Assembly (NCBI GenBank): GCA_049437345.1
Contig: JBMTIN010000001.1
Span: forward strand, 1-46,032
Length of the DNA stretch: 46,032 nucleotides
Direction: 5' to 3'
Source of the DNA: Candidatus Marinamargulisbacteria bacterium
Lineage (GTDB): Bacteria; Margulisbacteria; Marinamargulisbacteria; UBA817
How positions within the stretch are numbered: position 1 is the first letter of the stretch; every line of letters starts with the position of its first letter. A program made the translations under genes and the position numbers. The notes beneath the pieces are model-generated. The model was not told the origin of the DNA and ran no database searches. It saw only the letters and a program-made list of their open reading frames with translations. This document shows, piece after piece, positions 24,501 through 25,489 of this stretch.

Positions 24501-25205
24501 ATGGATTCAATGATATTTATTGTTTTGGGTGCGGGGCTGGCGATTGGTTTGGGGGCGATTGGTTCGGCGATTGGTGAGGGGTATATTGCCATGAATGCTA
24601 TGGCGGCCTTGGGTCGACAACCCGCCGCATCCCAGAAGATTTTGAGGCTAATGATTATTGGTCAGGCAATTACCGAAACAGCGGCTATTTTTGCATTGGT
24701 AATGGCTTTAGTGTTATTGTTTGGTGCTGGTGGCGAAGGCGCTATGAAATCTGTGACATATATTGCGGCCGGAATTGCCATTGGTTTTGGGACAATTGGG
24801 TCTGGTTTTGGTGCTGGTTTGCCTGGTGGTTCGGCATTAAAGGGCATTGGCCGGAATCCAGATAACTCAGATGTTTTAACGGTTCAAATGATTATTGGGC
24901 AAGCCGTTACTCAGACATCGACGATTTTTGCACTTACGGTATCGCTCATATTGGTAACCTTGAATCCAGAAGCCAGTTATTTAAAAGTATACGCTATTTT
25001 AGGCGGGGCTTTTGCGATGGGTTTTGGGGCAATTGGGCCCGGCATTGGCGATGGCATCGTGGCGAAAAACGCCAACGAAGCGGTGGGTCGTTCCCCCCAG
25101 CACATGGGGCTTTTAACACGAACAATGATTATTGGTCAGGCCATTACTGAAACAACGGATATTTATTCGTTGGTTGTGGCATTGATTTTAATATTTGTTG
25201 TTTAA
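24501..25205 (+). CDS. Triplicated (three-hairpin, six-TM) ATP synthase c subunit; the middle hairpin lacks the ion-binding carboxylate
   Basis: 234 aa made of three units of about 78 aa (nt 24501-24740, 24741-24974, 24975-25202). Each unit has a G-rich helix 1 and MIIGQA(I/V)T(E/Q)T in helix 2. Helix-1/helix-2 key residues are E/E in unit 1, A/Q in unit 2 and D/E in unit 3. Confidence 0.85.
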   Translation: [234 protein letters not shown]

Positions 25206-25237
25206 AAAATTATAAGGTTTTATTAGGAGGAAAATAA

Positions 25238-25489
25238 ATGGAATTAGTTACAGGTGATCAATTTGTTAAAGCATTGGCATTATTAGCGGCCGGGATTGCG
25301 ATGGGTTTTGGTGCGGTAGGTCCGGGTATTGGTGAGGGTTTTGTTGCTGGCAAGGCATGTGAAGCCATTGGTAAGCGACCCGATGAGCAAGCATTGATTA
25401 CAAAAACAATGATTATTGGTCAGGCCATTTCAGAAACAACAGGTATTTATGCCCTGGTTGTGGCGTTGATTCTAATTTTCGTAGTATAG
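25238..25489 (+). CDS. atpE: F0F1 ATP synthase subunit c (single hairpin)
   Basis: 83 aa, reading [27 protein letters not shown]...[24 protein letters not shown]. An AGGAGG RBS lies upstream. Confidence 0.92.
   Translation: [83 protein letters not shown]

Follow-up and report, generated by a model that had tools for sequence, protein, structure and literature searches.

A three-hairpin c subunit with an ion-less middle hairpin in an F-type ATP synthase operon of Marinamargulisbacteria, one branch of a large family of multi-hairpin c subunits

The window analyzed here is a 46,032-nucleotide (nt) stretch, positions 1 to 46,032 and with them the whole of contig JBMTIN010000001.1 from a Candidatus Marinamargulisbacteria bacterium (GCA_049437345.1). 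It carries an F1Fo ATP synthase operon with the gene order AtpZ-like, AtpI, a, c3x, c, b, delta, alpha, gamma, beta, epsilon, in which c3x is our name for a c subunit of 234 amino acids (aa) made of three consecutive hairpins and c is an ordinary single-hairpin subunit of 83 aa. The number of ion sites in the c-ring sets the number of ions per ATP, a central and much-debated bioenergetic parameter. Standard F-type c subunits are single hairpins of about 70-90 aa with one carboxylate each; c3x departs from this pattern in its three hairpins and in Gln138, which occupies the carboxylate position of the middle one.

The c3x reading frame contained no stop codon and no frameshift at the hairpin junctions. 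Pfam ATP-synt_C matched the protein in three separate stretches (146.7 bits, E=2.3e-43, cut-off 24), the number that the initial annotation of this DNA had expected from a profile hidden Markov model (HMM) search. TIGR01260 scored 108.7 bits against a cut-off of 43.95, and the NCBIfam F0F1 subunit C models also matched in three stretches. An AlphaFold2 model based on 16 homologues (predicted local distance difference test, pLDDT, 92.4; predicted template modelling score, pTM, 0.87) showed six long helices that form three hairpins (H2-39/H41-75, H81-118/H120-153 and H160-197/H199-233), with two short linkers, each five to six residues long, between them. The initial annotation had described three hairpins with six transmembrane helices, Gln and Ala at the acidic positions of hairpin 2, only two carboxylates (Glu59 and Glu217) in one c subunit, and an ordinary c gene following in an otherwise canonical F-type order. 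The codons, the structural model and the profile matches agreed with this description on every point. The third-hairpin motif AITETTDIY holds two further residues of interest, Asp220 and Tyr222.

The three hairpins were 40-47% identical to one another, and hairpin 3 was 63% identical to the neighboring single c. At the DNA level the copies recurred at 237-nt spacing with 60-80% identity. Because the DNA repeats are only this similar, neither a recent duplication nor an assembly collapse or chimera accounts for them.

Features of the window, with the three hairpins of c3x and the residues at their ion-site positions
Feature	Position	Strand	Evidence or residues
Hairpin 1 of c3x, aa 1-80	24501..24740	+	live: Glu26 in GEG (GAG 24576-8), Glu59 in AITETAAIF (GAA 24675-7)
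Hairpin 2 of c3x, aa 81-158	24741..24974	+	ion-less: Ala105 in GAGLPG (GCT 24813-5), Gln138 in AVTQTSTIF (CAG 24912-4)
Hairpin 3 of c3x, aa 159-234	24975..25205	+	live, atypical: Asp184 in GDG (GAT 25050-2), Glu217 in AITETTDIY (GAA 25149-51)
AtpZ-like small membrane protein (ATPase_gene1)	23022..23258	+	Pfam PF09527, 27.2 bits, E=4e-6
AtpI-like protein	23236..23637	+	Pfam PF03899, E=1.3e-3, weak, below the curated cut-off; in the atpI position, ahead of a
Fo subunit a, 285 aa	23630..24487	+	Pfam ATP-synt_A, 153 bits; TIGR01131, 106 bits against a cut-off of 102.6
c3x, three-hairpin c subunit, 234 aa	24501..25205	+	one open reading frame (ORF), three ATP-synt_C stretches
Single-hairpin c, 83 aa	25238..25489	+	Pfam ATP-synt_C, 68.6 bits
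Fo subunit b	25500..25985	+	Pfam ATP-synt_B, 91 bits
F1 subunit delta (OSCP)	25985..26527	+	Pfam OSCP, 95 bits
F1 subunit alpha	26537..28045	+	ORF and sequence; orthologues in L007 and L009 with ATP-synt_ab domains
F1 subunit gamma	28058..28918	+	ORF; orthologues in L007 and L009 match PF00231
F1 subunit beta	28931..30337	+	TIGR01039 (atpD equivalog), 806.9 bits against a cut-off of 462.85
F1 subunit epsilon	30334..30756	+	ORF; orthologues in L007 match PF02823 and PF00401
Fic/DOC-family protein	2582..3694	-	
tmRNA gene	3835..4214	-	172 bits
RNase P RNA, bacterial class A	19994..20338	+	295 bits
tRNA gene	97..183	-	
tRNA gene	8486..8560	-	
tRNA gene	14109..14181	+	
tRNA gene	16438..16510	+	
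tRNA gene	19784..19857	+	

The exact c3x protein was present on 5 contigs. Its database entry, from a metagenome-assembled genome, is MGA0241394.1, titled 'ATP synthase F0 subunit C [Candidatus Marinamargulisbacteria bacterium]'. A homology search over 5.8 billion proteins returned 880 matches, about 80 of which were 227-239 aa long and 68-95% identical to c3x; several of these were named Marinamargulisbacteria, including three single-cell genomes. All 79 close full-length homologues carried Glu, Gln and Glu (E-Q-E) at the helix-2 carboxylate positions of hairpins 1 to 3. The helix-1 positions were typically Glu, Ala and Asp, and were invariant in the 16 aligned homologues, as were E26, E59, A105, Q138, D184 and the motifs GAGLPG and AVTQT; E217, D220 and Y222 were conserved in at least 90% of the same 16. 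Among the 79 homologues, mean pairwise identity was 0.77 in the dead hairpin 2, compared with 0.71 and 0.80 in the live hairpins. The order a-c3x-c-b-delta-alpha-gamma-beta-epsilon was kept in relatives at 68-74% identity (L007-L011), one of them a single-cell genome, so that the pairing of triple and single c genes that the initial annotation had proposed to look for does recur. One of these loci (L011, JAYOLY010000029.1) is labelled 'Rickettsiales bacterium'; its c3x is 69% identical to the window protein within the same operon synteny, and it is probably a mis-binned Marinamargulisbacteria contig.

Tandem similar repeats can assemble wrongly, and two short fragments (62 and 105 aa) share the 90% cluster of c3x. 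Both facts would fit a frame produced by faulty assembly or sequencing, or one left by three tandem c genes that are decaying into a pseudogene. Against this, the frame was uninterrupted in about 80 independent sequences produced with different assemblers, including single-cell genomes and contigs above 1 Mb, and a four-hairpin relative lies on a 4.6-Mb contig whose name suggests a long-read assembly. The limited identity of the DNA copies points the same way, and every hairpin is under strong purifying selection. Conservation and independent assemblies together effectively rule this explanation out, and we give it almost no weight. These results show c3x to be a genuine rotor (c) subunit gene of an F1Fo ATP synthase, maintained under selection.

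The gene lies between a and b in an operon with F-type F1 alpha, gamma, beta and epsilon genes. The operon is of the regular F-type, because beta passed the atpD equivalog model while the N-ATPase and V/A subunit K models all scored below their cut-offs. Subunit a retained the stator arginine within the motif SFRLFGN, and an AtpZ-like gene also came first in related operons (L001, L004, L009). Ribosome-binding sites were strong for both c3x and the single c, the latter with AGGAGG 7 nt upstream. With a strong Shine-Dalgarno sequence on both genes, the ratio of c3x to c expression is not readable from the DNA. The GC content of the operon (0.40-0.41) equalled that of the rest of the contig and thus gave no sign of horizontal transfer into this genome. 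Elsewhere in the window, the tmRNA gene adjoins the Fic/DOC-family gene, and the pair falls in the 2-kb bin with the lowest GC content of the contig (0.367), which could reflect insertion of a small island at the tmRNA gene. One program-made ORF (14088..14774) overlaps the tRNA gene at 14109..14181, so its true start must be further downstream.

To place c3x among its relatives, we considered longer and shorter proteins as well. In the first homology search, relatives of 323-325 aa consisted of four hairpins with the pattern E-Q-Q-E and relatives of 404-405 aa of five with E-Q-Q-Q-E. These longer proteins sit in Fo operons of Desulfobacterales, in the order atpZ-I-a-c(multi)-c(81-82 aa)-b-b'. 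A HMMER pass over 1.84 billion cluster representatives yielded 72 clusters at E<=1e-30. When the best 150 cluster representatives were parsed with a hairpin HMM, two-hairpin (E-Q), three-hairpin (E-Q-E, E-Q-Q and E-E-E) and four-hairpin (E-Q-Q-E, E-Q-Q-Q and others) proteins were seen, along with proteins of five, 7 and 12 hairpins. A large group of four-hairpin proteins (P0196-P0294, about 312-324 aa) showed the pattern E-Q-E-D at about 30% identity to the query. Proteins with Glu throughout had 5, 7 or 12 hairpins (P0148, P0183 and P0154, respectively), and another with 12 hairpins (P0228) carried Gln in the first and Glu in the eleven that follow. Searching again with a four-hairpin protein as the query gave 2,185 clusters at E<=1e-40, many of them six-hairpin proteins of 481-490 aa; all named matches among the best 120 were metagenome-assembled genomes (MAGs), with no cultured host or model organism among them.

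A scan of GTDB species-representative genomes, parsed by ORF and HMM, covered 80 loci. A c gene with at least three hairpins was found in 59 of the 80 (21 with three hairpins, 34 with four, 3 with five and 1 with six), and in 52 of these 59 it stood directly between a and a single-hairpin c. By record title, the loci belonged to Marinamargulisbacteria, Cloacimonadota, many Desulfobacterota, Planctomycetota, Armatimonadota, Nitrospinaceae, Anaerolineales, Hydrogenedentota, Latescibacterota and Deferrisomatales, and multi-hairpin c loci spanned about ten phyla. Loci from Bacillota had the two-hairpin form resembling that of Acetobacterium woodii. At the extremes, a Thermodesulfobacteriota MAG (L058, DAISYU010000003.1) encoded a 487-aa protein with six hairpins, E-Q-Q-Q-Q-Q, followed by an 82-aa single c, and three Planctomycetota or unclassified MAGs (L023, CP070719.1; L075; L077) had a three-hairpin c with the pattern S-Q-Q and no membrane carboxylate, directly between a and a normal Glu/Glu single-hairpin c. 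The single c beside multi-hairpin genes had Glu in both helices almost always. It was also very similar across distant phyla (L001-L089), which suggests either strong constraint or transfer of the Fo module. In four Desulfobacterales or Syntrophobacterales MAGs (L013, L054, L065, L067) the order was reversed, with a followed by the single c and then a two-hairpin c with the pattern E-E.

Thus c3x is one branch of a large family with three to six hairpins that is distributed over many phyla. Its members are annotated in databases just as 'ATP synthase F0 subunit C', a name that conceals the difference. The initial annotation knew of no description of this architecture for an F-type operon. Full-text literature searches likewise turned up no account of F-type c subunits that have at least three hairpins, although Matthies 2014 and Brandt & Muller 2015 may mention them, nor of the three-hairpin E-Q-E form, of an independent origin, or of a family reaching six hairpins and five dead sites. 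The architecture is not a single case, however: the family is large and spread across phyla.

To examine the descent of the fused subunits, a neighbor-joining (NJ) tree of individual hairpins was built with 200 bootstraps; the sequences are short and NJ was the sole method. The hairpins clustered by position and not by protein. The first hairpins of three-, four- and five-hairpin proteins grouped together (bootstrap 79), the last hairpins grouped with single-hairpin c subunits (bootstrap 100), and the internal dead hairpins grouped together weakly. Hairpins 1 and 2 of A. woodii c1, together with c2, formed a separate group. Pairwise hairpin identities agreed with this grouping by small margins. 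The tree lends moderate support to a common fused 'first-dead-last' ancestor of the Marinamargulisbacteria and Desulfobacterota genes, in which internal dead hairpins would have been duplicated or lost later, and to an independent duplication in A. woodii c1. Descent of c3x from A. woodii c1 was rejected on this tree, moderately strongly given the short sequences.

The residues around each site were compared with the two-carboxylate Na+ site of Fusobacterium nucleatum, which consists of Glu32, Glu65, Ser66, Thr67 and Tyr70 (PMC3692424). The single c of the window has all five residues of the motif (Glu33/Glu66/Thr67/Thr68/Tyr71). Hairpin 1 of c3x has the Glu/Glu/Thr part, with Ala61 and Phe64 at the equivalents of Thr67 and Tyr70. 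Hairpin 3 has Asp/Glu/Thr/Thr/Tyr and the extra Asp220. This conserved aspartate lies three residues after Glu217 (25149..25160) and, with Asp184, brings the acidic residues at the hairpin-3 site to three. Judged by these motifs, the two live sites of c3x do not appear equivalent, that of hairpin 3 being the atypical one. Across the multi-hairpin set, Tyr70 was present in 2 of 376 hairpins that precede a dead site compared with 88 of 326 that precede a live one, counts that are phylogenetically non-independent. This hints that residues 66, 67 and 70 of a site come from the hairpin before it. Hairpin 2 of the window protein, with Phe143, is an exception to the trend.

Marinamargulisbacteria are reported to encode the Na+-pumping Nqr (bioRxiv 10.1101/328856). 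Because the single c holds the full two-carboxylate motif and these bacteria encode Nqr, Na+ is most likely the coupling ion. We consider it very unlikely that the enzyme is instead H+-coupled or promiscuous and works mainly as an ATP-driven pump, with fewer sites building a steeper gradient. The substitutions at the Thr67 and Tyr70 positions of hairpin 1 and the Asp in helix 1 of hairpin 3 would fit such an enzyme, fewer sites per turn favor pumping against a higher gradient, and the database name 'F-type H+-transporting ATPase subunit c', an automatic name only, nominally agrees. However, the single c, presumed to supply most sites, has every residue of the Na+ motif, the organism is marine with relatives that encode Na+-Nqr, and no second ATP synthase that could take over ATP synthesis was seen within the 46-kb contig examined.

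On balance we favor, as reasonably probable, a heteromeric and most likely Na+-coupled c-ring built from c3x and the 83-aa c, with one ion-less position for each copy of c3x. In this proposal c3x would co-assemble with copies of the adjacent c into a single ring, as A. woodii c1 does with c2/c3. The neutral Gln138 site would mimic an occupied, uncharged site, allowing its hairpin to pass the stator arginine of subunit a without ion exchange. Every copy of c3x would then remove one ion-binding position from the ring and lower the ion/ATP ratio. Known Na+ F-type rings have 11 hairpins; in a ring of that size, made of one c3x and eight c, 3 ATP would cost 10 ions and not 11. Related lineages have dead hairpins, from one to five of them, interspersed among the live ones or following them, and may in this way tune the ratio. 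A heteromeric ring is favored because the multi-hairpin gene pairs with a single c in 52 of the 59 loci. The S-Q-Q relatives lack any carboxylate and therefore cannot form a functional ring alone.

Several points weigh against this proposal. We infer both the shared ring and the ratio of c3x to c within it, the ring size is assumed, and Na+ specificity is read from motifs. Hairpin 1 lacks the Thr67 and Tyr70 equivalents, and the hairpin-3 site is non-canonical, with Asp184, Asp220 and, from hairpin 2, Phe143 in place of Tyr; c3x may thus contribute fewer than two working sites. In addition, a single E56Q left the engineered, fused c10 of Bacillus PS3 unable to support ATP synthesis, according to the account of Mitome 2004 given in PMC8809890. 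That loss means that passage of a Gln site is not automatic, and natural Gln hairpins must therefore be specially adapted.

The heteromeric ring was weighed against two other arrangements of the same subunits. A homomeric ring of c3x, say of four copies with 12 hairpins and 8 sites, seems to us quite unlikely; the single c would then build an alternative ring for other conditions, and the cell would have two interchangeable rotors. Since the first and last hairpins of c3x are live, interfaces between c3x copies could form sites; the triplicated proteolipid is the sole c in Methanocaldococcus jannaschii, and both genes here have good ribosome-binding sites. Yet the multi-hairpin gene almost always comes with an adjacent single c, and homomeric rings of S-Q-Q (no carboxylate), or of E-Q-Q-Q and E-Q-Q-Q-Q-Q (one each), would be useless or nearly so. 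The characterized analogue in A. woodii, moreover, makes a mixed ring. A mainly structural role is also unlikely: c3x would be present in single copy as a covalently linked, pre-curved arc that nucleates the ring, sets its size or docks gamma/epsilon, with loss of a site merely tolerated. Such a role fits the G-R-x-P motif kept in all three cytoplasmic loops of c3x, the retention of a distinct first and a single-c-like last hairpin while the internal hairpin number varies, and the assembly-type genes AtpI and AtpZ that always accompany the multi-hairpin gene. Deletion of c1 in A. woodii reportedly gives an unstable enzyme, in line with such a role. On the other side, Gln and the surrounding dead-hairpin motif are invariant, arguing for selection on the ion-less state itself, and the repeated expansion of dead hairpins from one to five resembles a tuning of site number. 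A structural role may coexist with an energetic one.

A broader version of the heteromeric ring can be put forward tentatively, as a possibility that we would not bet on. The family would represent a widespread and old class of F-type rotor in which a single-copy multi-hairpin 'keystone' inserts a contiguous ion-less arc of one to five hairpins, the number of dead hairpins acting as a genetic gearbox for the ion/ATP ratio. The keystone might in addition lock the ring to gamma/epsilon in one rotational register. If this class exists, natural F-type motors would be able to pass through much of every turn with no coupling to ion transfer, unlike engineered E56Q rings.

To our knowledge, a naturally reduced site count has been characterized in one bacterial F-type enzyme only, that of A. 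woodii and its close relatives, with one dead site in a two-hairpin subunit. The c3x family appears to be an independent and more elaborate solution, with three to six fused hairpins of which one to five, or all, have dead sites. Its carriers include abundant marine heterotrophs (Marinamargulisbacteria), sulfate reducers, Planctomycetota, Cloacimonadota and others. If the multi-hairpin subunits enter the ring, metabolic models of these groups would be using wrong ion/ATP ratios, and the family would be a natural series in which to test how rotors pass ion-less positions.

Among known systems, the closest to c3x was A. woodii c1 of the F/V-hybrid rotor (PDB 4BEM), also present in Clostridium aceticum. 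It was the best PDB match by sequence (4BEM_J, E=2e-24) and the best fold match (root-mean-square deviation 1.5 A over 156 columns); no solved structure in the fold search spanned all three c3x hairpins. Like c3x, c1 is a multi-hairpin subunit of an F-type operon, encoded directly after a and before single-hairpin c genes, has Gln for the carboxylate in one hairpin and has residues of a Na+-type motif. The A. woodii ring contains nine single-hairpin c2/c3 and one two-hairpin c1 without one site (PMC9171764; PMC7911925). Its enzyme synthesizes ATP despite the Gln site (PMC9171764), and its operon logic has been described (PMC7911925). The two differ in that c1 has two hairpins (E-Q) and c3x three (E-Q-E) with six helices, and in that helix-1 position 32 is Gln in A. 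woodii and Glu, Ala or Asp in c3x. Unlike c1, the c3x family extends to four, five and six hairpins with up to five dead sites.

The proteolipid of the M. jannaschii A1AO enzyme is triplicated, with six helices and two carboxylates, and it is the only c subunit there. It is like c3x in its three fused hairpins, six helices and only two carboxylates, but belongs to an archaeal A-type operon as the sole c gene, whereas c3x is in an F-type operon beside a single c. PRK06271, a 220-residue V/A-type subunit K model that we take to represent the triplicated M. jannaschii-type proteolipid, scored 61.1 bits on c3x against a cut-off of 211 and aligned one hairpin. The initial annotation had called c3x an F-type version of the triplicated two-site proteolipid. 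The F-type and two-site parts of that description stand, but the likeness to M. jannaschii is best read from these scores as convergence, an analogy. V-type c/K subunits (Enterococcus hirae NtpK, eukaryotic c/c'/c'') share fused hairpins and the loss of one carboxylate with c3x, but have two hairpins, occur in V-type operons and are 22-24% identical to it, with a fold template modelling (TM) score of about 0.8 over two hairpins; NCBIfam V-type models scored far below their cut-offs. The N-ATPase models were also below cut-off for c (TIGR03322, 126.8/130.85), a (TIGR03306, 94.9/302.1) and beta (TIGR03305, 601.8/752). Homology of c3x to the M. jannaschii proteolipid, V-type K or N-ATPase c was rejected on the NCBIfam scores.

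The F. nucleatum c11 ring (PDB 3ZK1) shares its Glu32 and Glu65 pair with the single c and with hairpin 1 of c3x (Glu26/Glu59), but is a homomeric ring of single hairpins, none of them fused or dead. Engineered fusions, with two to ten linked c subunits in Bacillus PS3 (c2-c10) and c2/c3 fusions in E. coli, indicate that linked F-type hairpins can assemble working rings (PMC8809890). Those fusions are artificial and joined by GSAG linkers. A single E56Q cost the fused c10 its ATP synthesis, whereas the Gln hairpin of c3x is conserved by selection.

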